Shown one piece after another: positions 1-30,106 of a stretch of 64,000 bases of DNA. The notes under the pieces are model-generated. The model did not search any database. It was not told the origin of the DNA and saw only the letters and a list, made by a program, of their open reading frames with translations. The stretch is taken from positions 14,062 to 78,061 of the forward strand of contig JAKSOR010000002.1 of assembly GCA_024405515.1 (NCBI GenBank), in the 5' to 3' direction. Within the stretch, counting starts at the first letter, position 1. The number at the start of each line of letters is the position of its first letter. The position numbers and the translations under genes are program-made. The stretch comes from Clostridia bacterium (GTDB lineage Bacteria; Bacillota; Clostridia; Christensenellales; CAG-917).

Positions 1-3000
1 CAAAGTTTTCAGTAATCTTATAGAGATATGTCACATCGTTATTATCACCGTCAATAACTCTGTATGTTACTTTGTTTATAACAGAACCGGCCTGTTTGAT
101 TGTGGATGATTCATCGAAATCATATTCAAGTGTGTGACCCGGTTCAAGACTTGCGGCGCCCTTAATCTGGATTGTGTTCTTGTCTCCGTTAGTAAGAGGA
201 GTACCGTCATAGACTTTGGTGAGTCCAGGGGATGTGATGGTTATTTCTCTCAGAATAATTGTAAGATCTCCTTCATAAATAACGATATTATAAAGGTCGC
301 TTAAATCAATTTCATTTTCTTCGTCCATCATGTATACATCAGCTGCTGCCGAGTTCTTTCCTGACTTTTCTGTTGCCGAACCATAAACATTGACTCTGAG
401 GATATGTCCTATTTCCGTAAGGACGCTGCCTGAGAGAATTTCCCATTCATCGCATGTAAGAGGAGTACCGTCATATTTCTTTTCGGCGCTGAATGTAAGA
501 AGGATGATATTGCGTTTTGTAACTGTAAGAGTGCCGAAATCCTCATTAACTGTATAAACATATGTAACATCATTACCGTCTTCATCAAGTACTGTTACTG
601 TGTATGCGTTCGGGACTCTGCCAGGTTCTGTGATTTCTCCCGTTCTTTCACATACGACTCTGTGTCCTTCAAAGAGATTTGTATCATCAATGAAGAATGA
701 GGTGTCATCTTCTGAGTCAAGAATGAGAGGAGTACCGTCGTATTCTTTTTCATCACTGCCTGATGTGACAGATATGAACTTCTTGTAAAGCTTTAATTTT
801 CCGTAGTTTGTATTCTGGAAATTGTAGTTTGCTGTCATATCGTGGTTTTCACCGTCCATAACGATGAAATCAGCGGTGTTAGTTACTTCGTAGTATTTCT
901 CGCCGGTCTTGATATCGGTCTTAAGTTCTGCGCCGGCAGGAATCTCGGTAATGGAGGTCCAGTTTGTTGCAGTATAAATTGAGTGACCGCTTATGAGTCC
1001 GTCTCCGTCTGTGTAAACATATTCAGGGCAGGTAAGGGCTGTCTTGCCGTCATAATATCCTGTCTTGGATGCTGTTGTGAGTGTTACATTCTTCGGCATG
1101 ATGATAAGATCACCGTAATGATAATCAATTTCAAAGCTTGTATCCTCAACAGAATTTGCATCAAAGAGCTGAACCGTGAACGTGTTAGGTGCAGTCTGTG
1201 CGTTACCGTCTTTTGTCTTACCCGTGATAGTTACCTTTATTGTGTATCCTGCTGGTAGTTCTGAATATTCATAACCATCCGGATCACCTGCAAGCGGTGT
1301 ACCGTCGTAGAATTTAGCCTTTTCGGAAGATTTTACTGTGATAATCTTTGCTGCGACAGTAAGTTCACCGAATTCTTCGTTTACTGCATAGTATCTTGAA
1401 ACATCTTCACCGCTTTCTTTATCCGTGATAGTGTATTCGGCAGTGTTTAATGTCTTTCCGATATCCGTAATGGTTCCGGTTACTGTTACAAGGAACTGAT
1501 GAGAATCAAGTACGTTGCCTTCGATGGAATAGGTATCTTTTGTAAGAGGCTCGCCATCGTAGATCTTGCTTGCAGAGCCGGTTCTTAATATTACGGAAAT
1601 GCGTACAATCTGAAGTTTTCCGAATTCTTTAATTATATTGTAGTATGATGAAGCATCATTTCCGTCTTTGTCGGAAACTGATACGATGAAATCATTATCG
1701 ACTTCGCCGAGTTCTTTAATTGAAGAAATACATTCTACGAATTCCTTGTCTCCGCCTACAAATGAAGAACCGTCCTTTAATGTATAACTGTTCTTTGTGT
1801 GAATCTCGCCGTCATATGGCCAGTATCCAGGTGAAGAGACGATTGTCACATCTCTCTTTGTGATTTCGATAGTACCTTTTTCGTATGTTACAGAGCATGC
1901 CGAAGTAATATCAACAGGTGCTGCGCCCGGATTTTCAGGATCTCTCTTTGTGATATGGAATGTATCAGGGATGATTTCGCTTTCGTAGATGCCAGGTACG
2001 GTGCCTTCGCCTCTGAACATAGCTGTGAAATCATATCCGAGTGCTCTTAATGCCTCAATTCCGCCGAGTTCCTTAAGACCGATGACTTCAACAACAGATG
2101 CTGTATGTGAAACACCATCGTACTGTGCTGTGACATCCTTAGGTTTTACTGTGATTGTGAGGCTGTCCGGGATAGGCGGGATGACAGGTGATTCTTCTCC
2201 GTGTTCATGCATATGACCACGCTCACCACCGGTTACCTCTACCTGGAACCATCCGTAGTTATCAATATATACCTCGACCCATGCGTGTGCACTTTCGAAC
2301 GTGATATCCACAGGAGTATTTGCTTCAGTGATTTCTGTCACAAATCCTTCAACAAATCTTGCCGGAATTCCGAGGGCACGGTAGAGCATTGTAGCTGCTG
2401 TGGCAAAGTGCTTACAGATACCGCTCTTATACTGTGAGAGGAATGCAATGGCTACGTTTTCGGCGCTGTCAAGAGCCATGTCATATGTGAGTGAGTAGTC
2501 AGCGCTTGCCTGGATATATGATGCCACACCGGCTATCTTCTGATAGAGTGAGAGAGCAGGGTTATTAAGGTCATTATCTTTGATAATGCCATCCATAAAC
2601 TGCTTCGTGTCGGTATCTATTCCGAGGTATGTACTGTGTACATAACTGTTATAAGCATTTAATTCGCTTTCGTATTCACTGCCTAAAGATATGCTGCTTC
2701 CGAGCAGATTCTGTAAATCACTCATGGTCATTGTGTAATAACCTACTGTGTATGCAGCTGATGAATTGCCCGTGTATGCGGCATCGCTTGTCTGAACCTG
2801 GTATGTTCCTGATTCAGGGTCCATATAGTAAGGAAGCGGATATCCGAAGTCAAGATAAGATGTGATGGTTGCTGTATTTAAATCCTTGCCGTATTTTTCA
2901 AGGATAAGTGATGCAATATAATCAGCGCTTACCTGTTTTCCGTTAACAGTAATATGATTTGATGAAGAGGATACCATATTAAACGGAATGAAGCCGGTCT

Positions 3001-6000
3001 TTGCATATGAACCGTATGCGTTTATCTTAAGGTAAATCACGGAAGGTGCAGTGGTGAGAACGGTAAGCATCGGCTGATCCTCATCCTGTTCATCCTTTTC
3101 TTCCTCATCAGTGGCATATACTGTGAGTTTTCCGAAAATGACATTTGGTGAGTACAGTGCTGTCACATCATTTCCGTCTCCGTCCGTGACCTTGAACTTT
3201 GTCATGTCTACTGTATTGTCTTTGGTTGTTGTTTCTGTTGCGGTTCCTGTATTTGAACCTGTAGCTGCAGTAAGGATAGTATCATCAATGACGTCCCCGT
3301 CTCTTAACTGTGCAAACAGAATGTCCACTCTTGGGTTAGTAAGAGGTGTTTCATCAAAGTCTTTGGAATCTGATGCCGACTGGATGATTACGATTAATCC
3401 CGAAACAGTGAGTTCACCGAATTTTTCATTTACTGAATAGTATTTTGAGAATTCCGCATCAGAAACTCTTGCACCGGTACTGTCTTCAAGCCAGTATGCT
3501 ACTGTGTTGTATACTGTGCCAGGTTCGGTGATTGTTACATACGGATCTTCGTGACAGAATCTGTATCCTTCCTTAAGTTCATCTGTGTTGAGGGAGATGA
3601 TATCGCTTGAGTGTGGATTTCCGTCATAAATCCATGTTCCTGAACCGGTTATTATTTCAAGGGTTCTTTTCTTAATGGTGAGCGTACCCTCTGTTGTCTT
3701 AATTTCGTATAAGGCGGATACATCCTGATCATCTCCGTCAAGGATGCTGTATGTGAATGTGTTCTTTGAAGAACCGATACCTGTCTGTGAGCCGGTTATA
3801 CTGAATACGATATGGTGATCCTCGGAAAGCAGGTGGTCATCAATTTTATATGCTGTCTCATCATTGAATACAAGTGCCTGTCCGTCCTCAAGTTCATCAA
3901 GAAATACTGTCTTTGAAAGTGTGGTGAAGGAGATGAACGGATTTCCTATATAGAAGAGGTTTTCTACTTTTGTGATTTCGTAGAATTCAGTAAGTTTTTC
4001 TTCAGGATTGCTCTTAAGCACTATTTCACAGAGGGTTATTTCATTTGGTGTGCCTTCTGTGTATTTTGCAGCGAGTGTAACGGTTTCTGTTACAAGGATA
4101 TGGCCGCTTACGAGTGAACCGCTTGTAATCTTTACGACATTATGGTTATATGTCTTTCCTGCTTCATAAATATCGTGCCATTCCTCACTCTCTACCGTAA
4201 TCTTACGTTTAAGGATAGTGAGCGTTCCTTCCTCTTCCGTTATATCGTAGTTGGAAGTTGCATCTTCTCCTGAAACATTCATTACTGAAAGTGAAGTGAA
4301 GAATATTGTGTATTCGCCAGGTATTGTTCCGAGCTGAGGCGTGTCATAGAGAATATAATCCGAAACTGCGAGGCCGTCTGTTGAGACAATGAAGTCCTCT
4401 TTTCCGTAGTATTCTCCGGAATATTCATAAGCTGCATTCTTAAGTCTTACCGAAAGCGAAATCTTGGTAATTTCAAGGTAAGCATCTTCGTTTACGGAAA
4501 TAATGTAGTTGTCCGTGACGTCCTCATCATCGCTGTCCTTAATTTCGATGGTTACGCTGTTTAATACCCTTGATACGTTCTTAATCTTTACGTAATCTTT
4601 TGCGGATGCCGTATGTCCCGGAACTAACTGTGAAACGCCGTCATTTAATACTTCCTCGAAATCAGGAAGTGAATGCTCTGTTCCGTCATAATTCCATGTA
4701 GTGCTGCCGATGACAAAGCTTATCGGGCGTGCTGAAATTGTGAGGGTGCCTTTCTCTTCTATTATGACATTGTAGTTTGAAGAGACATCCTCATGTACTG
4801 AATCCTCAACTATTCTATAGAATGAGATTGAAGTGATATCGTTTGTGTAAATGCCGGCATTCTTTTCTTTTGTTGTGGTTATCTCAGTATTATCAGGTAC
4901 AAATCCCTCATCGAATGCTGCTGTGTAGAGACCTTCAAGATATTCTCCGTCATATACTTTTTCAGCAGAAAGGGTAGTGATTGTGTATGTTCTTCTTAAA
5001 ATGAGAAGTTCACCGGTAATATATTCAATTGAGTAGTTTGCTGTCACATCACTTTCGGATGAGTCTTTTATGATAACGGTAAGAAGGTTCTTTACTGAAG
5101 TCTCGCTGCCGTCCGCACCAAGCGTTACATCTGTTACCTTTGTGTATTCGGAAACAGAAGCGGCATGTCCCGTGACAAGAGGTGTTGTCTCTGAAACGGT
5201 GAATGTGCTGCTGTACTGGTATTCCTTATTGTACTTTGATGTGAGTGAACCTGTGGTTATTGTTACAGGTCTTGGTGTAACTGTAAGTGTTCCGTATTCA
5301 TCGGATACGGAGAAATTGTAAAGATCTGCGTATGAAGGATCTAATGAGAATGCAAGAACGTTATCTGTTCCTTCTGCAGCTACATCTGTGACTGTAGTGA
5401 ATGAAGTGCAGGTAAGAGAATGACCTTCAAGCAGTGATCCTGTGCTGAAGTGGTAACCGGCACCGTATTCTTTATAAGAGTGTTCTTCTCCGTCGTAAAC
5501 AAATTCCTGTGACTCGGTTACTATTTCAAGTGTTCTCTTTGTTATTTCAAGTGTGCCAGGGATTATGGTGAATGTATAACCGTTTGTATAGTCATTACCT
5601 TCTTCATCCTGGACAAGAATTGATGACAGATCGATACCGATTTCACTACTGTATGTACCGATATCCTTTCTTCCGCCGGTGAATACGAGGCTGTCTGTAA
5701 TGATTATATGACCTTCCGCAAGCTCACCGTCTGTAATCGTGAATGCTGTTGTGTCTGTCTGTCCCTGGGTTTCCGCATTGTATTCAAGAGATAAATCGGA
5801 AACAGTGATTTCGATTTCTCTTCCGAGAATTGTAAGAATTCCGAAATCTTCGGTTATATCGTAGTTTGCCGTTACGTCATTTTCGGTTGCCTTATCAAGA
5901 ATTACAATGGTAAGGGCATTTTCTTCAGAACCTATTTCTGTAACGGATGTGTATTCTGTTACTGAGATTTCATGTCCTTCTAGAAGAGCATTTGCATCCT

Positions 6001-9000
6001 CATATGATACAGAGTCGTTATAAAGAGGTGTGCCATCATAAGGTTTGCTGTCGGACTGTGACTTGATTGTGATAGGACGCTTTGAAATTGTTCCGTTGCC
6101 GTTTATAAATGTAATATTATAGTTTCCAGTTGAATCATAACCGGTTGCTTTCTTTGTTATTTTAAGTTTTGCCTTTCCTTCGGTATCAAATGCCACTCTG
6201 AATTCCTGGATGCCTGCATCAGAACCTGAGGTGAGGGTGATAAGTGAAGGAAGTATTTCATCTACGGTTTCCACAAGACCGTCTGTTGTGAATGTGCCGC
6301 TTAGAGGCGTGCCGTCATAAATCTTATCTGTAGGAACGGTTGTGATGGTGAGGTCTTTCTTTGTTACTGTAAGAACACCGTCCACACATGTGATATCGTA
6401 GTTTGAGGTCACATTGTTTTCAGATGAGTCTTTGATTACCACATTGCCAAGAGTGGAAGCGCCTGTTCCGGCGTCTGTTATTGAACCTGATGCAACGGCA
6501 GTGGCTGAGTGGCCTGAGATAAGACCTGAAACAGTGAATGTCGAAGGTGCATTAAGAGCAGTTCCGTCATATGTCTTTTCATTATCATCGGCTGTGAGAG
6601 TTGCTTCTTTTGGAAGAACCTTGATCTTTGCCAGTACGTAGGTGATAGTGTAGTTCGCGGTTACATCATTTACTCCGTCAGTAACTGAAACAGCAGTGAA
6701 TTCGTTTTCAGTATATGTTACGTTTTCGGCATCATATACTACGTTCTTATAAACTGTGGATGCCGATACAACAACTGAATGGCCGGAAGCAAGTCCCTGC
6801 TCGGAAGTGATTTCAAAATCGGTAAATGTATGTTCTTCAGCATCGTAGGTGAAGTCCTCACCGAGTGTGGTGATTTCAATTTCACGTGATGTGACAGTTA
6901 TTGTTCCGTCTGTATAGGATATATCGTAGTTTGAGGTCACATCGTTTCCGTCAGCATCATAAATAACAGCATCAGAAACAACAAGTGAATCTGTTCCTTT
7001 GTCTGTTAATGAACCGGATACTGTTGCTTCTGCCGTATGACCTTCCACCAGATTATCCGTAGTGAAATCAGTATCGGCGGCGGTAAGCGGTGTGCCGTCA
7101 TATATCTTAGAGATTGAATTTCCTGTAAATGTTATTTCACGGGCAGTTACACTCAGTGTTCCGTATGTCCATACTATGTCATAGCTGAGTGTGGCATCAT
7201 TTTCCTCATCACCGATACGTACGGTGAATTCATTATCCACATCGGTTATTACATCCTTTACGCCGGTTGATGAAATAATGCTGATTTCATCTCCTGAAAT
7301 AAGACCGTCATAAGTGAAGCCCTCAGTGAAATACTGCTCCTCTCCGTTATAAGTGAATTCCTTATCCGGGGTTGATATGCTGAGCTGACGGGCCGTGATT
7401 GTGATTGTGCCCGTTGAGACATAAACGAATGAATAGTTTTCAGTGACATCATTTCCGGATGCATCTTTTACATTGAATGTTATCTCATTCGGTGTACCGT
7501 CTGAAACTGCATAAATTACTTCGGTGAATGTATCTGCATCGGCAGTATGTCCCGAAATAATGCCGTCAAGTGAATAGCCTGTGCCTTCTTCGTGATTTGA
7601 GTGTTTTTCTTTATCGTATTGGAATGAAGCATCATATGTAGTGACTGATACTTCTTTAGGAAGAACAGTAAGTGTTCCGTATACGTATGTGATATCGTAG
7701 TTCGAAGTCTTGTCGTTTGCACCGTCTGAAACGGAAACGGTGAGGATATTGTCAGTGCCGTCTGTTATATAGTGAACGGTTGTTTCAGCATTAAGAAGTT
7801 CAGCAGTTTCGCCTGAAACTGTCTTTGTATCGGATGTGATCTCAAACGTGGTTGCCTGGTGATCTTCATCATCATAGGTCCATGTATCACTTGCCGTTGT
7901 TACTGTTATTGCACGTTTTGTGACCTCGAGTGCACCTTCAGTGGTCTCAATATCATAGTTGTCTGTTACATCCTCATCTCCGTCAGATACGGTTACAGAC
8001 TCTATTGTGTTAGAGGAAGTTCCTGCATCTGTCTGTGAACCTGTAATGACCACGTTAAGTGAATGTTCGCTTATTAGTCCTTCTGATGTGAATGTACTGC
8101 AGGTAAGTGCAGTTCCGTCGTATTCTTTTGAATCGTCATCCGAAACAACAGTTAATGATTTCTGTGTGACTGAAAGTTTTCCGTAAGTGTACGAAATAAG
8201 GTAGTTTGCAGTGGTATCAGTGCTGTCTTTCTTTACGGATATCTCAAACTGGTTATCCTTTCCGGACTCTGATACATTCTTTATAGTGCTTACAGAAGAT
8301 GCAACGACTTCGGCTGTTTCACCGCTTGCAAGTGAAGTGCCTCCTGTAACTGAGAAACCGGTCCATGAAAGTTCTTCGCCCGTGTATTCAAAAGTCTTGC
8401 TTTCTGTTGTGACTGACAAAGGACGTCTTAAAAGAGTGAGGGTACCTGTTTCATAGGTGATATCATACTGTTCTATTACATCTTTGCCTTCTGCGTCCTC
8501 AATTCTGTAAACAATGAGATTGTCTATGCTGTCCTCATTACCGTCAGTATCAAAGAATACATCTGTGATTGATGTGGTACTGAGTACTTTTATTGTCTGG
8601 TTAGGGGCAAGGCGGTCTGCACTGATTCTGTCATCAGAAAGCGGAGTGCCGTCATATGTTTTTGAAGCAGTAGGGGTGGTGACAGTGAGAACTCTCGGTT
8701 CTACTTTAACTGCTCCGTACTGATAGTTAATGGTGTAATTTGAGGTTACATCTTTTTCACCGTCTTCAACTTTAATCTCAAAGAGATTTACGAGATTTCC
8801 TACTTCTTTAATCTTTGTATCTGATGTGAATACGGCTTTCTGTCCGTTGGCAATTCCAAGGTCACCTACGGTGACAAATGAGTTCTCGAAATGTTCTGTT
8901 CCGTCATATTCGAAGGTTTTGCTGTTCGATTTGATGGTTATAACCCTCTTTTCGATAGAAATGTTGCCATATTCATATGAAATCTTATAGTTGAATGTGT

Positions 9001-10330: not shown

Positions 10331-10348
10331 TACTGTCCGCCTCCTGTA

Positions 10349-14959: not shown

Positions 14960-14971
14960 AATCTTCCCGGT

Positions 14972-16384: not shown

Positions 16385-16407
16385 ATTGTTCTTTTATATC
16401 TATATAT

Positions 16408-18357: not shown

Positions 18358-18359
18358 TT

Positions 18360-19688: not shown

Positions 19689-19695
19689 ACTGTCC

Positions 19696-22600
19696 TCACT
19701 GCTGGCTTACCTGGAGGGAAGAAAGTGCAATTACTTTCTGGCACTGTGAAATGCTGTCATCCCCGAAGATAGCCCCGAATGTTTCTGTAAATTTCTCCGC
19801 GTCATAGTTTTCAGCGTTTCTGAGTACTGAAACAATAACCGGAAGGAACTTATATGCCAGTGTAAAGTCGAGAGCTTCCGAAGCATCGGAGTTACATGCA
19901 AGCATTGTTGCTGCGAACTGCTCTGTTCTCATACACAGTTTGTTACTCATATGGTAAGGACTGTATTTTGCTACAAGGTCCTCAAGTCTGTCGATCTTCT
20001 TCCATGTGTCTTCTTCAAGTTCAAACTCACGTTTTGCAACCTGTGTCATATACTGGAACTGATCATAATCAACCTTTGTGATAGGTGTCTTTTTGTCTTT
20101 CTTTGTGCACTCGCCGGCCTCAAGATTGATAAAGCATGCAAGGTCAGCAATGTGCTTTGGAAGTGCATCAAGGTTTTCATCTCCGCATACGTTCATGCAG
20201 ATCCATAAATTGGACGGTACTTCGATAGCTCTGTTGATACCGCTCTTAAGTTCAATCATGTTGACCTTATTAGGATTTGAGATGTACTTGATAACAGGTG
20301 AGAAGAATAAGTCAATAGAGGAGAGTTTAACATTCTGAAGTCCGACAAAGGAAATCTGGGGAGCAGTGAATGTCCCTTTTGCTGCTGCCTTAGCGAATGG
20401 TGTTTCCTCAAGTCTTGAACCGTTCTTTTTGTAGAAGAGATCAAGCGGTGATTCTGCTCCTGTAAGATCCTGGAGTGTATTCTGTGAGAAGAAATATGCG
20501 TTCATGATTGCCACTGTGAGATCGAAAATCTGTTTAGGGGCACGGATGAGCATAAGTCTTGATGTTGCCATTGATGAAAGAAGTAATCTTGCCTGGCTGT
20601 AGTTGATTCCGAGGCCTCTTTCGTTTGAGAATACCAGGAACTGTTTGCATATCTTTGAGAAAGTAATGTTCTTATCAACGAATGCCTGTCCTTCGTCTTC
20701 TTTATTTGCTGTTTCTTCCTCATCATCGAATTTGAAGTTCTCAAATTCTTTTTCGAAGATGTCATCAAGCTGGGATGAAGATACTCTTTCTGCATGTTTG
20801 AATCTGTCAGGAGCGGTCTTTTCAATCTGTTTCTTCTTTGAGAGGTCTTTAAGTCTTATGGCTGCCCATACGATAAGACCGATTCCGCTTACTCCGACGA
20901 GTCCGCATATAGCAGCTACGGCAGCCTGGATAAGAATGCCGTCATTCTTGAGCATTAATACTGATACTATCGCGCACGCAATACCTATTAATGTTGCAGC
21001 AATTCCACCTGCCAAAAGACCTGTCCATTTCTTGAGTTTTGCAGGGGTGGAAGTTGCACGTAATCTGAAATCATCATCAATGATATTTGATTCTGACTGC
21101 AGATAATCTTTCTTCTTTTCTCCTGTTTTAGCGAGATCCTTGCCTGCAACGGTCATCTCATCCATTATCTTGATATTTGATACGGATGGTCCGATATAGA
21201 GGTCATAGATTCCGGACTGGAGAATCATTGAATCGGTATCAGGGTCATAGAATTCAAGGTTTTCGATAGGTACTGTTACTTCCTGTGATTCGCCCGGATT
21301 AAGTTTAACCTGGACAAATGCCTTGAGTTCCTTGTTAGGCGTCATTACTGCAGAACCTTCGTTACCTACGTAAATTTGGGCAGTTTCTTTACCTGCCATA
21401 CTGCCGGTATTTGTGATTGTGAAGGTTACATCAGTGCCTTTTACCGAGAATTTTGAATATGTGAATGTCGTATATGAAAGACCGAAACCGAACGGATAAC
21501 GGACTGAAATATTGGATGAGTCATAGTTATAATAACCAATAAACTGTCCTACTTTGTTTCTTCCGCTGTCACGGTTGTTCTTTATCTGCTGGAACCAGTC
21601 GTTTGTATCTTCGTAAAGGGAGATGCTCATTCTTCCGACCGGGTTGAATTTGCCAAAGATTACATTGATGAGGGCATACGCTGAATATGTTCCTTCAATA
21701 GGTGCCCAGATGACACTCTGATAATCTCTGTCCCATCCCATATCAACAGGATATCCTGATGAAACGATGGCAACTGTCTTGTCTCCGAACTGGCTTAATC
21801 TGTCTATAAGTGCCTGCTGGTTTGCAGGGAGTGCAAGGTCCATTGAATTATGGATATTTGCCTCATATTCTTTGTTTGTTCCGAGGAACAGCCATATCAT
21901 ATCTGCCTGACCTGCAAGAGATTCAGCCTGGGAAAGAAGTTCTTCAGAGATATTTTCCTCAACATTGTATCCAGGAGCATGGCCTATAAATTCAAAATCA
22001 AGAGTCTTTGCATATGCTGTGAGACCGCCGATATAGTTAGGTGAACCGGAAAGTCCGTCCACGTCACCGATAATTGCTATTTTCTTTTTCTCTTTTACAG
22101 GGAGAATACCGAATTTATTCTTTAAAAGAACTACTGATTCGAGTGATGCTGCCTGAGCGCATGATGTGGCGCTGCTTGATGCCTGTCTGTTGCATGCATC
22201 GGCGAAATCAAAGAGTTTGTCAAGTGCTGCATCGAGCATTTCAGGAGATACTGCGCTTCCTTCCTCAATGGTCATGTTAAGGTCTTCAATTGAACCTGAA
22301 CCCTCGAGAATGGATTTCTGAAGTGACTGATAGTTCGCAACTGCAGAGGCGAGGGAAGATGCTGCGCCTTTAAGACACAGATTACCCTTTACAAGCTCTC
22401 TTAAAGTTTCATCAAAAGAATAGGCATCCGCAAATACTGTTGTTCCGAGCTGAGATTTGGCGACCTGGTCTATAAATGAGCGGTTTATATCCCCATAGTC
22501 TTTCAGCATTTTTGTTGAAGTTACGACTGCTTCGGCTTTGCACTTCTTCATTGCCTGCATATAAGGACTGATGAAGAAATGGTAGACAATTCTCTTAGAA

Positions 22601-23046
22601 GGAGTCGAATCGAAATATTCTATATCTGTATCCGCGACTGAGAAATCAGGAACGATGGATGCAGAACCTGCCTTGTGAACACCGCTGATGAAAGCGCCGG
22701 TGAAGATACCTGAAAGATACGGATCTTCACAAAGACCAGGCATGTACATGTTGCATCTAGGTTTTGCTGTCGGGACCTCAATAAGGTTTACGCCGGTTGC
22801 TCTTGCTGTGTTAGCGATATCGAGAGCACTTGCTTCCATAAGGGTGGTATCCCATGAATTTGCAAGGGCGGCGGCAGGCGGGTAAGCTTTTACTGCCTGT
22901 GTGCTGAGGTTTTCGAGAGTGTCCATTGTAACCTGCGGGACTCCCATTGCGTTCAGTTCCGGATTGGAGAGATTGGTCACATCCGTTAAGAGTGCAATCT
23001 TCTGCTGAACTGATAATTGATCGATAATTTGCGAATGTTTAATCAT
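19696..23046 (-). CDS. 1116-aa fusion protein: a GH3-like three-domain module (N-domain, C-domain, Fn3-like) with no signal peptide, a 2-TM hairpin and a degenerate (Walker-dead) McrB-like AAA+ domain
   Basis: GH3 hallmarks include KKIAIIGD, ADMIWLFLGTNKEYEAN...LALPANQQALI, PVGRMSISL, RYPFGFGLSYTTFTYS and GKETAQIYVG...ELKAFVQVKLNPGESQEVTV. The hydrophilic N-terminus is MIKHSQIIDQLSVQQ. The TM hairpin is WTGLLAGGIAATLIGIACAIVSVLML and ILIQAAVAAICGLVGVSGIGLIVWAAI (about 20851-21024). The C-terminal 323 aa align along their length with the neighbouring AAA+ proteins. Confidence 0.8.
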   Translation of the reverse strand: MIKHSQIIDQLSVQQKIALLTDVTNLSNPELNAMGVPQVTMDTLENLSTQAVKAYPPAAALANSWDTTLMEASALDIANTARATGVNLIEVPTAKPRCNMYMPGLCEDPYLSGIFTGAFISGVHKAGSASIVPDFSVADTDIEYFDSTPSKRIVYHFFISPYMQAMKKCKAEAVVTSTKMLKDYGDINRSFIDQVAKSQLGTTVFADAYSFDETLRELVKGNLCLKGAASSLASAVANYQSLQKSILEGSGSIEDLNMTIEEGSAVSPEMLDAALDKLFDFADACNRQASSSATSCAQAASLESVVLLKNKFGILPVKEKKKIAIIGDVDGLSGSPNYIGGLTAYAKTLDFEFIGHAPGYNVEENISEELLSQAESLAGQADMIWLFLGTNKEYEANIHNSMDLALPANQQALIDRLSQFGDKTVAIVSSGYPVDMGWDRDYQSVIWAPIEGTYSAYALINVIFGKFNPVGRMSISLYEDTNDWFQQIKNNRDSGRNKVGQFIGYYNYDSSNISVRYPFGFGLSYTTFTYSKFSVKGTDVTFTITNTGSMAGKETAQIYVGNEGSAVMTPNKELKAFVQVKLNPGESQEVTVPIENLEFYDPDTDSMILQSGIYDLYIGPSVSNIKIMDEMTVAGKDLAKTGEKKKDYLQSESNIIDDDFRLRATSTPAKLKKWTGLLAGGIAATLIGIACAIVSVLMLKNDGILIQAAVAAICGLVGVSGIGLIVWAAIRLKDLSKKKQIEKTAPDRFKHAERVSSSQLDDIFEKEFENFKFDDEEETANKEDEGQAFVDKNITFSKICKQFLVFSNERGLGINYSQARLLLSSMATSRLMLIRAPKQIFDLTVAIMNAYFFSQNTLQDLTGAESPLDLFYKKNGSRLEETPFAKAAAKGTFTAPQISFVGLQNVKLSSIDLFFSPVIKYISNPNKVNMIELKSGINRAIEVPSNLWICMNVCGDENLDALPKHIADLACFINLEAGECTKKDKKTPITKVDYDQFQYMTQVAKREFELEEDTWKKIDRLEDLVAKYSPYHMSNKLCMRTEQFAATMLACNSDASEALDFTLAYKFLPVIVSVLRNAENYDAEKFTETFGAIFGDDSISQCQKVIALSSLQVSQQ
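19699..20667 (-). other. Pseudo-ATPase McrB-like domain (Walker A and Walker B lost)
   Basis: Manual alignment to the paralogues:
- SHIMILQGMSGTGKTSLAHAF vs SRLMLIRAPKQIFDLTVAIM (GKT lost)
- VTVLDEMNIARVEYYFAEFLSLL vs SFVGLQNVKLSSIDLFFSPVIKYI (DE becomes LQ)
- IKLPVNMWFIGTANNDD..ISDKVYDRAMVLNLD vs IEVPSNLWICMNVCGDE..LPKHIADLACFINLE
- the C-terminal helical parts also align (ISAEQFDQL.. vs VDYDQFQYM..). Confidence 0.7.
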
Positions 23047-23067
23047 GGTTTATGCTCCTAAACTAGA

Positions 23068-26000
23068 TTAATCTATGTCCTTAGTTTTGATTTTTAATCC
23101 GTACAGATATACCTTGTCGTTTGCTGTACTGTTTGCTGATAAACTTGTGTTGTTAATCCTGAACTTGAGTGAATTGCCGGAGTTCAGTGTTATTGAGTAG
23201 TGAACTGGGTCAGCTGTGACTTTGATTCCGTCCTGGCTGAGTGCATCATTTATGAATACCTGGAGTTCTGAGGATGAACTCTTGAAATCTACAAAGTAAC
23301 TGAAGTCTGCCTCGACACTCTTACCTTCCGGTGCTTTTATTTCTATTGCTGTATAGTACTGTTTCTGGCTGCACTTTGATTTAAGCACTACTGCATTATC
23401 CTCGTATGCTACATATGAAACTCCCTGGAATATATCTGTAAGGGTAATTTCTTCTCGTGTCTTTGCATTGGCTGAATTGATTAATGTCCAGTGGCAGACC
23501 TTACATTCATTGTTTTCGTCAAGGTCATGGCTTCCCGGAGCAGTTGTTGAATATTCATCTCCACAGGCCGGGCATTTGAAGATTGTGTATACTTCGATAT
23601 CGCAGTTGTCTGATTCAACTCTGTCTGGAACGAAGTGGTTGATTTCTGTTGAGATTTCGCCTGCAGCTGTGAGTGTCCACTGAGTATTCTCATGTACACA
23701 TGCAGCATAATAAAGAACAGTGATATCACCGAAGCTTCTGTTTGATCTGATGCTTGGCCATGTTGTAGCTGTTCCTTTGTAATAAACAGTACCGGTGAAA
23801 TTGTTCGGATTCTGGAACCATAAGTTGGAGAATAATGCAATTGATGAAGGGGCGATAATCTTGTCAATATGTGAATCAGGATTTGTCATTGATAATTCGG
23901 CAACTGTGTAGGAATTAATCTCGCTTCCTTCGAATTCAAATGAATCGGCAAGTTCAAGAAGACCGTTTTCTGTTTCTCCTGAGATACTGTATAGATACCA
24001 TTTATCTGCATTATAGAGTGAATACGATACGTAGTAGAATTCTCCGTCTCTGAGTGTGTTTACGCTGAGAGCGCCTGCACTCTGGACAACTTCCTTTGCA
24101 TAGAGTGATACCTGGCCGTTGCTTGTTGTGCCGGTAACCACAGTTAAACCGGAAAGGTTGATGATGCCGTATAAATGCTTGCATCCCGTGAATGCTTCCG
24201 TAGAGATTGACTCAAGGTTTTCAGGAAGTGTGAGTACAGAGAGTCCGTAACAGTTATAGAATGCCTGCTCACCGATTGAAAGAAGTGAGGACGGCAGAGT
24301 GATATTATAAAGTCTGTAGCAGTTGTAATATGTTTTTCTGCTAATTGACTCAAGGTTTTCAGGAATATTTATATCTTCGAGTCTGTAACAGTTTTCGAAT
24401 GCACTTTCTCCGATTTCGGTTACTGTTGAAGGTATTGTGAGTGCAAGAAGTGAAGAGCAGTTCTTAAATACTTCTTCTCCGAATGATGTGAGATTAACGG
24501 AAGCAGAAGGAAGAGTTACAGCACTTAAATTCAGACATCCGCTGAACATGGAATCTGCAAGAACTTTTAATGATGAAGCACCGCTTAAATCTGCAGTCGT
24601 GAGTGAAGTGCAGCCTGCGAAACAGTTTTCAGGGAGTACTGTTACAGCTCCTGATACTGATACTGATTTGATTGCCGGGTTTGCATTGAAGATTCCGCCG
24701 AGAACTTTGTACTGGAAAGGGAGACCGTCATATGCATCTCCTTCTGCGGATTCGAATTCACCGAGGACGAGATTTTCAGGCATCATGCTATTAAGTGCAT
24801 ATAAGAACCAGTCTATTCCGTTTGTCTTGAAGACGAAATCGCCGTATACAGAATCGTAAAGGCTCTTCTTTGTTTTGTTATTGTGTATAAGAAGTGCATT
24901 CTTTGCAACATATCCGTGATTATCGCTTCCCTGTTCAATGTCAAATGATGTCAGATTGTATACATCATAAAGAACCGGGCATCCGATGAATGCGGATTCA
25001 CCGATATTTGCCTCACTGAGTGAGAACGGGAGATATACTGCAGAAAGTGATGAGTCATATGCAAATGCAAAGTCACTGATTGTTTCTGTTCCGTCAGGAA
25101 TTTTTGCATCTTTTAATTTTGCACAGCTGTTGAATGCATAACTGCCGATTTCCCTGAGATAACATGTGTCTTCCGGGAATAAAATGCTTTCAAGAGATGC
25201 GTTTTCTGAGAATGCATAGTCACCGATACTGCTGATACATGCTGCAATGCCGATCTTTGTGATGGCAGTGTTGGCCTCAGCAAAGTGCCCGATGATATTG
25301 TATTTTGATGCTGTTCTTACAATTCCTCTTGCATTTTCACCGGATGGTGTCTGAGGAAGTGTGAGTTCAGTCTTTGAATGATCGTAGTCAACAAGATACC
25401 AGTCACCGCCGTGTGTAACGTCTGCTTTATAGAATTCAAATCCGTTTTCATCAGTGAATTTTTCGGAATCAGCTATATATGCTGTTTCTGAATCATAGAC
25501 TGCGAGCGGGTTAGGGGCTACAGCTGTGAACGGTGAAGGGTTAATGATTTCAACAAGTTTATAGCAGTTGTTGAAAGCGTTTGATTCTATATCGTCAATA
25601 AGTCCCGACGGGATATTTATGTAGTTAAGGGATGTACATCCGTCAAATGCGTTGGACTCGATTGTCTTGATATCATCATTGAGAGAGACTCTCTTTAATG
25701 ATGTGAGTCCGTAGAATGCATTCTGAGGAATAAGTGTCGCTTTTGTAAGAGCAACTTCCCTGAGTGTTTCCGGTACATATTTATTTCCGTTTACCGCAAT
25801 GCCTGAACCGAAGATATATGCAAGATATCCGTACTCATCCCCGTTTCTGTTTCCGACATAAGGAAGTGATAACTTAACAAGGGAACCGCATCCGAGGAAT
25901 GAATTCTGACCGATGGTTGTGACTGTTTCGGCAATAGTTGCTTCGGTAAGGGCAGCACAGCTGTTGAATTCGTTTTCACTGATTAATGTGGCACCGTCTT

Positions 26001-28572
26001 TCTGTGTTAATGTGGTGAGTTTTGAGTTGTTTGCAAATGCATAAGGTTTTACATCGCTGCATACAGGAAGCTCAAGTGAAACAAGCTGTGTGTTCTGGAA
26101 TGCTTTTTCATCAATTAAATCAAGAGAACCTTTGAATTCTACTGAGGTAAGACCGCTCTCTGCAAAAGCCTGTTTTCCGATTGCTTTGATATTGTCCGGG
26201 ATTACGATGGTTTCAATACCGGATCTGTAGAAAGCTTTTTCCTGGATTTCAGTAAGATTTGCTGTGAGATTAATGCTTACAAGCTTGGCACATCCCTCAA
26301 AGGCGCTTGCCCCAATGGAATCGACGCCCTGGGAAAGTGTTATTGTCTGAATTGAAGATGCATTTTTGAATGCGCTGTCCGGAACAGTAACTGCATCAAG
26401 GAGAACAACAGAAACAACGGATGCCGGGATTTCTGTATCCTTTCTTGTTCCGAATAAATATGCGAATGTATGTGCGGTATCTGTTTTTGATGCACCTAAG
26501 TACGGGATGGTTACTTCTCTTAAGTTTGTGTCTCCTCCGAGAATGTTTGTTCCTATTTCGGTTACGGTTACAGGAATATATACCGAAGTTAATGATGTAC
26601 ATGATGCAAATGCATTGTTTCCGATTGTCCTGAGAGAGCTCTTTGGAAGAGTTAACTGTTTAAGTGATGCACAGTTGTGGAACGCAAATGTTCCGATGGA
26701 AACAACAGTATCTGGGATTTCGATTGTCTCTACATTCTTGCAGTGATAGAAAGCATTATCGACAAGTTCTGTTATATCGTTTCCGGTTAACTTGACCGTT
26801 TTAAGTGAGGCAGGAACTTGAACCTGACTTTCGGAATATGCTGCATTTCCGTTACCGAAAATGTAAGCAAAATGTCTGAACTGTGCTGAAGCAGTTCTTG
26901 ATTTTCCCATGAAAGGGACAGAAATTGATTTCATTGATGTGCAGCCTCTGAATGCACTGAGTCCGATGGACTGAACTGTTTCAGGAACGGTTGCATTTAA
27001 GATACCATCACAGTTTTCAAATGCGCTCTCGCCTATATTTCTTACTTTGTCTGAGAATGTGACATTTTTAAGTGAAGAGCATCCGAAGAATGTGTTGTCC
27101 GGGATATCCGTTGTGAGTTTTGATATATCTGTGTCAAGAGCTGAGCATCCTTCGAAAACGCTGGTTCCGAGTGCGGTGATTCCGGAAAGATCGAATTTTG
27201 TAATTCCGGAATTTTTGAATGCACTGTCACCGAGTTCTGTGAACTTGGATGGTGTTTCGATTGATGCAAGTTTATAGCAGTTTTCGAAAGCACTTTCTCC
27301 GACATATGTGTTTGAAAGGTCAAGAATCGTTAATGATTCAAGAGCTGTCATATTCTTTGAGAAATTATCACCGATTGCCGAAACATAGCCGAGAGTCAGC
27401 TTTTTGAGTGAATATGTTTTTGTATCGGCAAATTCTTTACCGAACATTTTATGAAGGGTGTCATCTGTTCCGGTGAATCCGAGTGTAGGGAGATAAATCT
27501 CTTCAAGTGAGAAGTCGTTTGCAAAGAGGAAATTAATGCCGTTTGCAACTGTTACAGGCTGATCTATTCTGACTGATTTTAATTTCTGACAGTTCAGGAA
27601 AACCTTTTCCCCGAGAGTGAGATCGGCTGTCCCTGAGAATGAAATACTTGATAAAGCAGTGCAGTCTTCAAATGCTCTGCTGCCTACAGTGAGCATGGAT
27701 TCTGAAGAAATGCTTTCAAGTGCAGGGCAGTTATAGAATGCCTGCATACCGATGGTGGTTGTGCTCCCGAGAGATACTGACTTAAGGTCTGTACAGTTTG
27801 CAAAAGCCCTGTCGCCGATTGCCGGATTTCCCTCAATAACCACCGAAGTGATGGTTTTGTTTGAGAGAGCTTCTTCTTTTATGGCTACGACTTTCATTCC
27901 CTGGATTACATCAGGAATGATGATATTTGTCTCATGTCCTTTATAGTTCGTTACAACTATTTCAGACATGTCATCAGCCGTGTCCGAGAATTCATATTCA
28001 ATGTTATCAAGAGTGAATACTGCGGCAGATTCAACGAAAGCACCGAGCTGGAGCCAGGTGAATCCGAATGCAGCAAGAATTACAACAACTGTAACGATGA
28101 GTAAAAGGCCGCCGAGTTTATAGTTTTTAGGAGCAACGGACTTTTTCTGAAGTCCCATTGTCTTTTTAATAGAATCATCAAGTTCAATCTGTTTCGGCGG
28201 GTCATAAGATACTGCCGTATTGTTCTTTTTGTAGGAATATTTGTAATCACCAAAGTCGGCTGCAACTATCTGTACCTTGAAATCGGTACAGTCATCATGA
28301 ATGAAAATGTCCTCACTAACGCTGAAACTTTCACCGCCGGCGCAGTGTATATCGTGTGATTTTACAAGCTGTTCACCGATTTTGTTTCCTCTCTTATCCA
28401 TTTCAAGGACGAGGAACTGGATTCCGCTGATAGTAGTCTCTTCATTGTTGTCAAAACGGAGGAGTAAACATTTTTTATCATTCTTATATGCAAAAATGAA
28501 CTGTTTTAAAGTTACCTGTTCATTTGACTGCGGATATGAGTAAAAACCTTTCGAAATTATCTGATAGTCCAT
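23068..28572 (-). CDS. 1834-aa type-II membrane protein. It has a ~155-aa cytoplasmic N-terminal domain, one TM, a long extracellular BspA-type (LRR_5-like) leucine-rich repeat array, a Cys-rich knuckle and a C-terminal beta-rich domain.
   Basis: The TM is KNYKLGGLLLIVTVVVILAAFGFTWL. There are dozens of units of the form I(G/P)..AF..C..L.S(I/V).(I/L)P..(V/L)..I. Near the C-terminus the sequence reads CPACGDEYSTTAPGSHDLDENNECKVCHW. No N-terminal signal peptide is present. Confidence 0.85.
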   Translation of the reverse strand: MDYQIISKGFYSYPQSNEQVTLKQFIFAYKNDKKCLLLRFDNNEETTISGIQFLVLEMDKRGNKIGEQLVKSHDIHCAGGESFSVSEDIFIHDDCTDFKVQIVAADFGDYKYSYKKNNTAVSYDPPKQIELDDSIKKTMGLQKKSVAPKNYKLGGLLLIVTVVVILAAFGFTWLQLGAFVESAAVFTLDNIEYEFSDTADDMSEIVVTNYKGHETNIIIPDVIQGMKVVAIKEEALSNKTITSVVIEGNPAIGDRAFANCTDLKSVSLGSTTTIGMQAFYNCPALESISSESMLTVGSRAFEDCTALSSISFSGTADLTLGEKVFLNCQKLKSVRIDQPVTVANGINFLFANDFSLEEIYLPTLGFTGTDDTLHKMFGKEFADTKTYSLKKLTLGYVSAIGDNFSKNMTALESLTILDLSNTYVGESAFENCYKLASIETPSKFTELGDSAFKNSGITKFDLSGITALGTSVFEGCSALDTDISKLTTDIPDNTFFGCSSLKNVTFSDKVRNIGESAFENCDGILNATVPETVQSIGLSAFRGCTSMKSISVPFMGKSRTASAQFRHFAYIFGNGNAAYSESQVQVPASLKTVKLTGNDITELVDNAFYHCKNVETIEIPDTVVSIGTFAFHNCASLKQLTLPKSSLRTIGNNAFASCTSLTSVYIPVTVTEIGTNILGGDTNLREVTIPYLGASKTDTAHTFAYLFGTRKDTEIPASVVSVVLLDAVTVPDSAFKNASSIQTITLSQGVDSIGASAFEGCAKLVSINLTANLTEIQEKAFYRSGIETIVIPDNIKAIGKQAFAESGLTSVEFKGSLDLIDEKAFQNTQLVSLELPVCSDVKPYAFANNSKLTTLTQKDGATLISENEFNSCAALTEATIAETVTTIGQNSFLGCGSLVKLSLPYVGNRNGDEYGYLAYIFGSGIAVNGNKYVPETLREVALTKATLIPQNAFYGLTSLKRVSLNDDIKTIESNAFDGCTSLNYINIPSGLIDDIESNAFNNCYKLVEIINPSPFTAVAPNPLAVYDSETAYIADSEKFTDENGFEFYKADVTHGGDWYLVDYDHSKTELTLPQTPSGENARGIVRTASKYNIIGHFAEANTAITKIGIAACISSIGDYAFSENASLESILFPEDTCYLREIGSYAFNSCAKLKDAKIPDGTETISDFAFAYDSSLSAVYLPFSLSEANIGESAFIGCPVLYDVYNLTSFDIEQGSDNHGYVAKNALLIHNNKTKKSLYDSVYGDFVFKTNGIDWFLYALNSMMPENLVLGEFESAEGDAYDGLPFQYKVLGGIFNANPAIKSVSVSGAVTVLPENCFAGCTSLTTADLSGASSLKVLADSMFSGCLNLSAVTLPSASVNLTSFGEEVFKNCSSLLALTIPSTVTEIGESAFENCYRLEDINIPENLESISRKTYYNCYRLYNITLPSSLLSIGEQAFYNCYGLSVLTLPENLESISTEAFTGCKHLYGIINLSGLTVVTGTTSNGQVSLYAKEVVQSAGALSVNTLRDGEFYYVSYSLYNADKWYLYSISGETENGLLELADSFEFEGSEINSYTVAELSMTNPDSHIDKIIAPSSIALFSNLWFQNPNNFTGTVYYKGTATTWPSIRSNRSFGDITVLYYAACVHENTQWTLTAAGEISTEINHFVPDRVESDNCDIEVYTIFKCPACGDEYSTTAPGSHDLDENNECKVCHWTLINSANAKTREEITLTDIFQGVSYVAYEDNAVVLKSKCSQKQYYTAIEIKAPEGKSVEADFSYFVDFKSSSSELQVFINDALSQDGIKVTADPVHYSITLNSGNSLKFRINNTSLSANSTANDKVYLYGLKIKTKDID

Positions 28573-28575
28573 GGT

Positions 28576-29262
28576 TTAACCTTTTTTCTCCTTCAGTTTG
28601 AGTCCCACAATGAGGGCTGCGGTTGCTATCGCACTCAGTCCGAGACCTATACCTATGGTAATAAAAATGCTGCCTAATGATGAATTGAACAGTTCCGCAT
28701 AAAGTCCGCCGACCATCTGGGAAAGGCAGTATTTAATAATAAAACACTCGGCAGTGATTAAAATGGCACTGATTACGCAGAACGGAATCAGTCTCTTAAG
28801 CTCAATGCTTGAGTGCTCGTCTTTTTCAATTTTGTCGTTATTAACCTGGTTGAGAATAAGGGATACGTATGAGGTTCCTTCAGGGAGTGCAATGATTGAT
28901 GTGGTTCCTTTCTTTTCAATGAGTTCCTTTACTGCAAGGACCTTGATGATTTTGTTTTCATCATCGAATGCCACTATATCAAAATCAATGTACTGGATGT
29001 CATCACGTATTTTTGCATAAAAGTATGACTGTGTTCCCTTTTCGTAAAGAATGTACTGGTTGATGTATTTTCTGATTTTAAGGGCAGGTACAAATAAAAT
29101 CCCGATACCGCTGGCATCTTTGAACTTTTTGATGCCTCTGTCTGAGGAAGATGTGATTTTGTAACGCGATTTAAGGAAAATTCTTGCAAGCGGAAATACT
29201 ATGATTAATGCCACTGCGACTATTGTTGCGAAAATTATTCCGATCCAGCCTGCAACACTCAT
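28576..29262 (-). CDS. 228-aa membrane protein, first gene of the operon. It has TM1, a ~130-aa cytoplasmic domain and two C-terminal TMs.
   Basis: The start at ATG 29262 is preferred over the track start at 29403. GGAGA lies 6-7 nt upstream (minus-strand context GCGAGGAGACTAAAAATG), and the predicted promoter lies inside the longer ORF. The protein begins MSVAGWIGIIFATIVAVALIIVF. The C-terminal helices are LIPFCVISAILITAECFII and IFITIGIGLGLSAIATAALIVGL. Confidence 0.7.
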   Translation of the reverse strand: MSVAGWIGIIFATIVAVALIIVFPLARIFLKSRYKITSSSDRGIKKFKDASGIGILFVPALKIRKYINQYILYEKGTQSYFYAKIRDDIQYIDFDIVAFDDENKIIKVLAVKELIEKKGTTSIIALPEGTSYVSLILNQVNNDKIEKDEHSSIELKRLIPFCVISAILITAECFIIKYCLSQMVGGLYAELFNSSLGSIFITIGIGLGLSAIATAALIVGLKLKEKKG

Positions 29263-29298
29263 TTTTAGTCTCCTCGCAATTAATAATAAATTATTAAG

Positions 29299-29327
29299 AT
29301 TGTAAGGAATTACCCGAAGATAGTCAA
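29299..29327 (-). promoter_or_regulatory. Sigma-A-type promoter of the large operon: TTGACT, 17 nt spacer, TACAAT
   Basis: Minus strand reading: -35 TTGACT (29322-29327), 17-nt spacer, -10 TACAAT (29299-29304). The -10 lies about 35 nt upstream of the ATG at 29262. Confidence 0.55.
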
Positions 29328-29414
29328 TTTCGAGAAAAAAGTTAATTATTAAAGTATCATATTGTGGTAAAGAGAACAAATATACACAATATGTTGTGCG
29401 CACATATATATGCG

Positions 29415-30056: not shown

Positions 30057-30106
30057 TAGGAATAATTCGGTTGCCTATTCGTGTTATACATAGTATAATC
30101 TTCTTT

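Follow-up and report, generated by a model that had tools for sequence, protein, structure and literature searches.

What does an McrBC-type nucleoside triphosphatase (NTPase) complex do in an operon of giant surface proteins? The question is raised by a gene cluster at the beginning of a 64,000-nucleotide (nt) stretch of DNA from a member of the CAG-917 lineage of Clostridia (assembly GCA_024405515.1, contig JAKSOR010000002.1, positions 14,062 to 78,061), which is referred to below, at its full length, as the window. McrBC is the textbook GTP-driven restriction enzyme. The cluster keeps what appears to be its NTPase-activator pair, without nuclease or DNA reader, inside a conserved operon with giant surface proteins. 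It is best read, with a probability of roughly 0.55, as a surface-protein assembly, control or signalling system built around an exapted McrBC-type NTPase complex. The cluster, its promoter and its genes are given below in order of transcription, with lengths in amino acids (aa), transmembrane helices as TM, and the basis of each call in brackets.

1-29262, minus strand: whole cluster, eight genes (open reading frame, ORF, coordinates)
29299-29327, minus strand: sigma-70-type promoter TTGACT-17-TACAAT before the cluster (10/12 consensus positions)
28576-29262, minus strand: protein A, 228 aa (start codon from ribosome-binding site/ATG and homologue alignment)
23068-28572, minus strand: protein B-LRR, with leucine-rich repeats (LRRs), 1834 aa (Pfam and topology)
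19696-23046, minus strand: protein C, 1116 aa, degenerate module like glycoside hydrolase family 3 (GH3) with an Fn3-like part, 2-TM hairpin, pseudo-AAA domain (Pfam, PDB, topology)
18360-19688, minus strand: D1, 442 aa, 1 TM and McrB-like NTPase domain (Pfam, PADLOC, PDB, topology)
16408-18357, minus strand: protein E, 649 aa, between D1 and D2 (Pfam, profiles, AlphaFold2)
14972-16384, minus strand: D2, 470 aa, 2 TM and an NTPase domain identical to that of D1 (Pfam, topology, repeat comparison)
10349-14959, minus strand: giant surface protein 1, 1536 aa, N-terminal signal anchor, YDG/MBG-type repeats, transglutaminase-like core (Pfam, topology)
1-10330, minus strand: giant surface protein 2, >3443 aa, 3' end beyond the window, signal anchor, MBG repeats, transglutaminase-like core (Pfam, topology)

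An earlier note, made from the letters of the sequence, had described eight minus-strand genes with tiny gaps behind one good promoter, had seen no internal terminator, and had divided the products into membrane-tethered cytoplasmic proteins and extracellular ones. This description stands. The ORF coordinates give the same gaps between the eight consecutive genes: 3, 21, 7, 2, 23, 12 and 18 nt. The promoter is present, shares the top consensus score of its region (10/12) with another site, and is followed downstream by a GAGGAG ribosome-binding site and an ATG at 29262. A consensus scan of the minus-strand intergenic regions between 10.2 and 30.1 kb, which says nothing on transcription, finds no convincing terminator. 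The division of the products is recovered with hydrophobicity and the positive-inside rule, on which all topology calls in this work are based.

The proteins D1 and D2 form the core of the argument. Both match AAA_5 in Pfam (each about 8e-7), in line with the two McrB-like AAA+ proteins of the earlier note, and the sole PDB sequence match of the domain is E. coli McrB (6hz4, E-value 0.0027). The Walker A (GMSGTGKT), Walker B (LDEMN) and signature (GTANNDD) motifs are invariant across 70 D-family sequences, which indicates that selection maintains the genes and that they are not in decay. With the D domain as query, a full HMMER scan returns 8694 cluster representatives at an E-value of at most 0.001, and the superfamily signature, taken from 150 of them, reads G-T-A-N-x-D-[D/E]. 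NxD followed by D or E is the variant used by Bell et al. to define the CoCoNuT/CoCoPALM branch (PMC11090510), and by this motif D1 and D2 belong to the NxD branch of McrB-like NTPases. A reading of the signature as NxxD, obtained from an ungapped phmmer alignment to E. coli McrB, was dropped in favour of the superfamily pattern N-x-D-[D/E]. Only one Arg is left at the double-Arg position. At its N-terminus D1 has one TM helix and D2 has two, in each case with a short linker of 60-80 aa in which no coiled coil is evident; Pfam and topology reveal no modified-DNA reader domain there. Judged from these features, D1 and D2 are probably active McrB-like NTPases, each held at the cytoplasmic side of the membrane by an N-terminal TM anchor of its own. 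The AlphaFold2 model of the domain has a mean predicted local distance difference test score (pLDDT) of 77.9, and its Foldseek matches (RavA, MCM, a MoxR-like protein, McrB, NorQ) fall in the RavA/MCM/McrB/NorQ/dynein group. McrB ranks fifth with the top identity (16%), and RavA, MCM and the MoxR-like protein score equally. The model assigns D to the expected AAA+ supergroup but does not distinguish McrB within it. As to whether the ATPases lie outside the McrB/AAA_5 families, they fall within AAA_5, McrB is among the top structural matches, and soluble relatives precede DUF2357 genes.

The two NTPase genes share a perfect direct repeat of 1049 nt, found by repeat comparison:

15000-16048, strand not assigned: direct repeat copy 1, 1049 nt, D2 NTPase domain
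18388-19436, strand not assigned: direct repeat copy 2, 1049 nt, D1 NTPase domain

The last 27 nt of D1 and D2, which adjoin the repeat, contain seven wobble differences and encode the same peptide. A perfect repeat beside a segment with wobble changes only points to a gene-conversion tract in DNA that is itself subject to purifying selection. Within 24 of 30 genomes, D1 and D2 share 98% identity or more over their final 340 aa, and in most of the 24 they share 100%, compared with a mean identity of 70% for the domain between genomes; in a minority clade the two copies are 70-83% identical. These comparisons indicate concerted evolution, in which gene conversion would keep D1 and D2 identical, with the caveat that short-read assemblers may wipe out small differences between copies. 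The N-terminal anchors of D1 and D2 differ; apparently the cell requires the same catalytic domain on two distinct tethers to the membrane. The repeat is probably also the reason why many metagenome contigs with E are only 2-3 kb long and carry E alone.

Three parts can be told apart in protein E: ~310 aa that resemble the N-terminal domain of McrC (DUF2357), ~220 aa of variable helical sequence, and a short conserved basic motif at the C-terminus. DUF2357 is matched at residues 57-167 with an E-value of 2.2e-7 and 30.8 bits, above the Pfam gathering cutoff of 23.3, and many members of the E family are flagged PF09823. DUF2357 is the N-terminal domain of McrC, which binds and activates McrB (PMC11090510). 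In a comparison of the family profile with PDB sequences, the helical region matches coiled-coil proteins only, and residues 330-649 form a coiled coil with a basic tail. These results fit the coiled-coil protein in the McrC position that the earlier note had proposed. Residues 1-340, modelled with AlphaFold2 at a pLDDT of 79.7, are predicted to form a helical bundle that includes two beta-hairpins, and helix 307-339 of the model runs into the coiled coil. The most conserved stretch of the protein, 48-152, contains the segment 74-128, to which the model assigns low confidence. A segment that is both conserved and of low confidence is what would be expected of a finger that becomes ordered only inside a partner ring.

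A PD-(D/E)xK nuclease in the 649-aa protein would have favoured an ordinary restriction module. Neither this nuclease nor any other was found in E by Pfam, NCBIfam, PADLOC, PDB profile search, or AlphaFold2 with Foldseek. The E-family profile recovers only coiled-coil noise from PDB sequences, and E has no match in PADLOC. Among the cluster proteins as a whole, Pfam, NCBIfam, PADLOC and structure searches detect no nuclease and no DNA-binding domain. It is inferred, in agreement with the earlier note, that the cluster is not a DNA restriction system; the lack of a detectable nuclease or DNA reader, the TM anchors and the conserved synteny all agree with this.

The synteny was examined through homologues of the E N-terminal domain, of which a large protein collection contains 831, and a scan of species-representative genomes finds relatives in 270 of them. 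The taxonomy was read from the titles of 80 listed loci, all of which are titled Clostridia or Bacillota, save one 2.2-kb contig labelled Acidiphilium. Most of the carriers are metagenome-assembled genomes (MAGs) from the gut, and two cultured ones are Anaerocaecibacter muris CLA-AA-M11 and Pumilibacter intestinalis. In the ~40 loci long enough to judge, from many species, the order is fixed as A, B, C, D1, E, D2, followed by one or two transglutaminase/MBG giants, so that the neighbourhood is conserved in relatives. No further gene family occurs on either flank in three or more loci, which gives the cluster sharp borders. Identity between genomes is about 70% for the NTPase domain, about 50% for the E N-terminal domain, and about 30% for A, B, C and the surface proteins. 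The cluster is best read as a self-contained, vertically maintained unit of gut Clostridia. In one MAG (JAZRGJ01), two contigs each carry an E homologue, which may mean that the cluster is present twice in some genomes.

Protein C appears to have lost catalytic function twice. Its GH3 part is recognised as a complete GH3 fold by Pfam (Glyco_hydro_3_C 5.7e-33, Fn3-like, and a weak GH3 N-terminal match) and by a PDB sequence match to 7ms2 (2.5e-57). Compared with 7ms2, the substrate-binding R is replaced by M and KH by PD, and the acid/base motif SEGFDR reads ANIHNS. The nucleophile Asp is retained in the window, in a column that is not conserved among 31 orthologues; the substrate-binding and acid/base positions are likewise not conserved among them. 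The GH3 matches in NCBIfam are all far under their cutoffs. As judged from these positions, the GH3 module is catalytically degenerate. It has no signal peptide and lies, by predicted topology, on the cytoplasmic side of the TM hairpin. The C-terminal 330 aa of C align over their full length with the NTPase domain of D, but in place of the Walker A, Walker B and signature motifs they have other residues, which vary; this bears out the description of a Walker-dead McrB-like domain fused to a GH3-like module. Because the GH3 catalytic residues and the AAA motifs are both replaced, and in view of the topology, C is regarded as a double pseudo-enzyme on the cytoplasmic side.

At the other end of the operon, the giant proteins match Transglut_core (1.1e-21 and 4e-20) and, weakly, MBG_2 in Pfam. 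The catalytic triad of giant protein 1 is an intact Cys-His-Asp (GICSHF, HAWTEVY, QIDAT), and that of giant protein 2 is Cys-His-Glu (GICKHF, HAWVEVY, QVEVT), with Glu instead of Asp as the third residue. The motifs suggest that the transglutaminase/cysteine-protease-type cores are intact, and the two giant YDG/MBG-repeat proteins, each with such a core, are present as first described.

The relatives of D and E place the cluster in a wider setting. Relatives of D occur in three architectures: one or two TM helices with the NTPase domain, four TM helices with the NTPase domain, and soluble proteins of 700-800 aa. The soluble relatives match the PADLOC model PDC-M26A and sit on plasmids, and the one from Rhodoferax precedes an annotated DUF2357 gene, independent confirmation of a pairing between this NTPase subfamily and McrC-type proteins. 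The nearest one-TM relatives (L088 3386-17852, and also L090, L091 and L095) each occur with an E homologue of 25-28% identity (E-value about 1e-20), and are flanked by EAL and GGDEF-EAL proteins of cyclic di-GMP (c-di-GMP) signalling and a Big_3 surface protein. A sister operon with the four-TM form (L086 4177-21842, L087 4311-21833) is conserved in two unrelated samples and includes six to seven small unknown proteins, an ABC transporter (12TM_1), an ~830-aa protein and a Flg_new surface protein. Its 475-aa zinc-ribbon protein has a sub-threshold DUF2357 match and shares a YENRF motif with E, and in L086 there is a weak S26 signal-peptidase-like match. By analogy, this operon is probably of the CoCoPALM type. 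All inspected membrane-anchored relatives of D are found in nuclease-less surface or lifestyle operons.

CoCoPALM is the name given by Bell et al. 2024 (PMC11090510) to TM-fused, coiled-coil, pilus-linked McrB relatives. Their NxD GTPase is joined to an FtsB-like N-terminus that contains TM segments, and they are associated with genes of the signal-peptidase family (pilus assembly). The present cluster shares with it an NxD McrB-like NTPase with an N-terminal TM region, an McrC homologue with a coiled coil (found also in E) and no working nuclease, and a position within surface-structure operons; CoCoPALM-like operons also hold the nearest relatives of D (40-47% identity) and E (25-28%). The cluster differs in that no coiled coil is seen on the NTPase, two NTPase genes flank the McrC-like gene, a GH3-like/pseudo-AAA fusion is added, and giant transglutaminase/MBG and LRR proteins take the place of small pilin-like proteins. 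Pfam detects no Peptidase_S26 in the cluster proteins of the window, nor in A, B and X_500 (an optional upstream gene described below) of the loci L001 and L003. The related CoCoNuT systems (PMC11090510) likewise belong to the NxD branch, have long coiled coils and often contain McrC homologues without an active nuclease. However, they are soluble and always come with HEPN or other nucleases and RNA-binding domains, none of which was found in the cluster. With canonical McrBC (E. coli EcoKMcrBC), the cluster has in common an McrB-type AAA+ NTPase gene adjoining a DUF2357 gene, and McrB is the sole PDB match. In contrast to that system, it has TM anchors in place of the DNA-binding domain, a coiled coil in place of the PD-(D/E)xK nuclease, NxD[D/E] instead of NxxD as signature, one Arg at the double-Arg position, a duplicated NTPase and an added pseudo-NTPase subunit.

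PcdA of Staphylococcus aureus is an exapted McrB-family protein that has moved from restriction to a cell-envelope function (PMC10602043). It keeps EVE domains, has degraded NTPase motifs, and lacks an McrC-NTD partner and a TM anchor, whereas in the cluster the NTPase motifs are intact and the McrC-type partner is retained. The statement that all known McrB systems are soluble DNA-restriction enzymes, on which the earlier note relied, is outdated in view of CoCoPALM (PMC11090510) and PcdA (PMC10602043). Its further remark that it did not recognise a described system holds for the cluster itself, of which literature searches found no published description, and the text of the CoCoNuT supplements mentions neither GH3, transglutaminase nor Christensenellaceae. 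It does not hold for the broader class, which has been named (CoCoPALM) and not analysed, and PcdA is an earlier example of an exapted McrB-family protein. What sets the cluster apart is that its NTPase is duplicated and homogenised, that a GH3 module is fused to a pseudo-AAA domain, that B is modular, and that giant proteins bear transglutaminase cores.

Two more distant comparisons concern the transglutaminase cores. Operons of the MoxR-DUF58-TgpA/Bat type link an AAA+ gene of the helix-2-insert clade to a membrane transglutaminase-like protein. The AAA+/transglutaminase linkage is the same here, and RavA, MoxR and NorQ are among the top Foldseek matches of D. However, Pfam finds no AAA_3/MoxR, DUF58 or VWA match in the cluster, the partner is a DUF2357 protein, and the transglutaminase core lies inside giant repeat proteins. 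In the LapD-LapG-LapA system of Pseudomonas, a transglutaminase-fold cysteine protease acts on a giant repeat adhesin under cytoplasmic control via a membrane protein. This is a functional analogy only; homology is not expected, and the envelope type differs. In the cluster, the giant protein itself contains the transglutaminase core, and an NTPase, not a c-di-GMP receptor, makes up the cytoplasmic module.

In the known restriction complex, McrC bridges two McrB hexamers, and its DUF2357 domain plugs into the McrB hexamer. By analogy with such McrBC structures (see also PMC11090510), a mechanism can be proposed for the cluster. D1 and D2, possibly incorporating C, would form membrane-tethered rings, which E would activate through its DUF2357 finger. 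The coiled coil of E may take the nuclease's place as the dimerising element, and an E dimer would then bridge two rings. The TM partners A, B and C would pass the effect of nucleotide hydrolysis on to the giant surface proteins. As an outcome, the giant proteins may be assembled, anchored, remodelled or released, or their state may be signalled inward. A bolder extension of this proposal, tentative and doubtful as a whole, is that membrane-tethered nuclease-less McrBC-type rings are the common cytoplasmic engine of unrecognised Gram-positive surface-fibre or adhesin machines, comprising CoCoPALM-like operons, the c-di-GMP-linked operons and the present cluster. In the latter, D1/D2 rings, identical by gene conversion and completed by the dead C, would be bridged by an E coiled-coil dimer and would drive the assembly or regulated release of the giant MBG-repeat proteins, whose transglutaminase cores might cross-link or cleave them into a surface structure.

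Several points weigh against reading the cluster as a surface-protein system driven by McrBC-type rings. It is synteny that couples the NTPases to the surface proteins, and the functional assignment (adhesin deployment or remodelling, or signalling) draws on synteny and predicted topology. The ring composition, the dimerisation of E and the direction of signalling are guesses by analogy. Foldseek fails to tell McrB apart from MoxR or MCM for D. The McrC likeness of E comes from the Pfam match, the PF09823 flags and the gene position; Foldseek of the model of residues 1-340 against the PDB returns nothing below an E-value of 0.18, neither an McrC nor a nuclease fold, and hhalign of the E-family profile with E. 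coli McrC gives a probability of 0.07, E. coli McrC probably being too distant for a useful comparison. The flanking genes vary between genomes. Finally, the NTPase domain of D matches the PADLOC candidate-defence model PDC-M26A at 1.4e-46, and this match, together with the soluble relatives on plasmids, indicates that the lineage has defence-type members.

These last points bear on an unlikely alternative, a membrane-based anti-phage or conflict system in which the LRR protein and the giants would be surface sensors or phage-attachment decoys, the NTPase a switch, and the transglutaminase cores or membrane perturbation an unrecognised effector. Besides the PDC-M26A match and the unconserved flanks, such a role would suit the defensive ancestry of McrBC (PMC11090510), the plasmid-borne soluble relatives that adjoin DUF2357 genes, and the fast evolution of the surface-exposed parts, A, B and C (about 30% identity vs 70% for the NTPase). 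It is opposed by the lack of a nuclease or other known effector domain among the domains found in the cluster, by the missing PADLOC match of E, and by the character of the cluster itself, which at 25-35 kb is dominated by giant repeat proteins, atypical of defence islands, and occurs in a single gut Clostridia group, always in the same gene order. The context in the window is core metabolism, free of mobile or defence genes, and phage records contain just two weak relatives.

A still less probable explanation takes C as an active membrane-associated GH3 glycosidase of the NagZ or BglX type whose substrates are precursors of the wall or capsule, with the transglutaminases cross-linking wall proteins and the AAA+ proteins as accessory chaperones. 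The full GH3 fold (Glyco_hydro_3_C, Fn3-like and 7ms2 matches), the sub-threshold NCBIfam matches to GH3 enzymes and the intact transglutaminase triads speak for such a glycan or cell-wall system, but the residues that serve 7ms2 in substrate binding (Arg, Lys-His) and as acid/base (Glu of SEGxDR) are replaced in C, the nucleophile and other catalytic positions are not conserved in the 31 members of the C family, the NCBIfam scores are all far below cutoffs, and the GH3 part lies, without a signal peptide, on the cytoplasmic side of the TM hairpin. As for an ordinary or decayed McrBC restriction module lying beside adhesin genes by chance, McrB-like and DUF2357 genes are indeed adjacent here as in restriction operons, but the probability of this is negligible. 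Chance adjacency is excluded because the order A-B-C-D1-E-D2-transglutaminase is kept in ~40 independent long loci, a synteny that effectively refutes it; the gaps of 2-23 nt behind a single promoter, the TM anchors on all NTPase proteins, and the failure of the domain and structure searches to detect a DNA-binding domain or a nuclease point the same way.

The remaining partners of the putative surface machine are A and B. The promoter of the cluster sits within the longest ORF of the first gene (28576-29403), a ribosome-binding site and an ATG are found at 29262, and homologues align only from there (residue ~48 of that ORF); consequently, the first protein is taken to have 228 and not 275 aa. 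By predicted topology, A has a short N-out tail, a TM helix, a ~125-aa cytoplasmic beta-rich domain and two further TM helices, and its orthologues occur in the related loci. B-LRR is predicted to have a ~150-aa cytoplasmic domain, beta-rich like that of A, one TM helix (153-171, with K/R on the N-terminal side) and ~1660 aa outside, which are mostly BspA-type LRRs (LRR_5, E-value 2.7e-185 in Pfam) with a Cys-rich C-terminal part. Its residues 8-196 are homologous to stand-alone proteins of ~200 aa in other loci, so B exists in two forms: stand-alone, or with the same domain fused to 860-1800 aa of LRRs. A homologue search with the B N-terminal domain recovered a single protein. The C-terminal ~330 aa of B-LRR (23068-24060) form a non-LRR extracellular tail that is beta-rich at its end and contains a zinc-ribbon-like motif, CPAC...CKVC. 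The cytoplasmic domains of A (28576-29262) and B (28093-28572), both fast-evolving and without a known fold, may be homologous to each other (hhalign E-value 2.6e-4, probability 42%, 81 columns). The optional upstream gene X_500 encodes ~500 aa with a multi-TM N-terminus and no known domain (L001 2342-3829, L003 1975-3480 and seven other loci). It is seen only alongside stand-alone B and is absent with LRR-fused B (window, L007, L042), the numbers being small; a search for an X_500 homologue in the window found none. For A, B, X_500 and E, Pfam, NCBIfam and PADLOC return nothing besides DUF2357 in E and the LRR_5 repeats of B in the window.

The G+C content is even along the whole window. The other half of the window is occupied by housekeeping genes (queH, an acyl-CoA ligase, glp genes, leu/ilv genes), and the domain annotation of its proteins reveals no mobile or defence genes. 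The queH gene (29415-30056, minus strand) has its own promoter, TTGACT-17-TACAAT at 30049-30021, and diverges from an AMP-binding-enzyme gene (30017-31624), the starts of the two longest ORFs overlapping. The leu/ilv cluster contains two neighbouring LeuA-like paralogues (HMGL-like and LeuA_dimer) at 49835-51361 and 51403-52911.

The identity of D1 and D2 within genomes provides a clean example of concerted evolution and also accounts for a recurrent break in metagenome assemblies. The giants rank among the largest surface proteins of abundant, little-studied gut Clostridia. The existence of cultured carriers, Anaerocaecibacter muris and Pumilibacter intestinalis, makes the idea of a surface-protein system around an exapted McrBC-type complex testable. 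If it is true, the cluster would be a concrete example, partners included, of a defence motor re-used in cell-surface biology, and it would offer a handle on the role of the unexplored membrane/coiled-coil branch of McrBC. It would also be a candidate for what makes Christensenellaceae-like gut bacteria adhere or aggregate.

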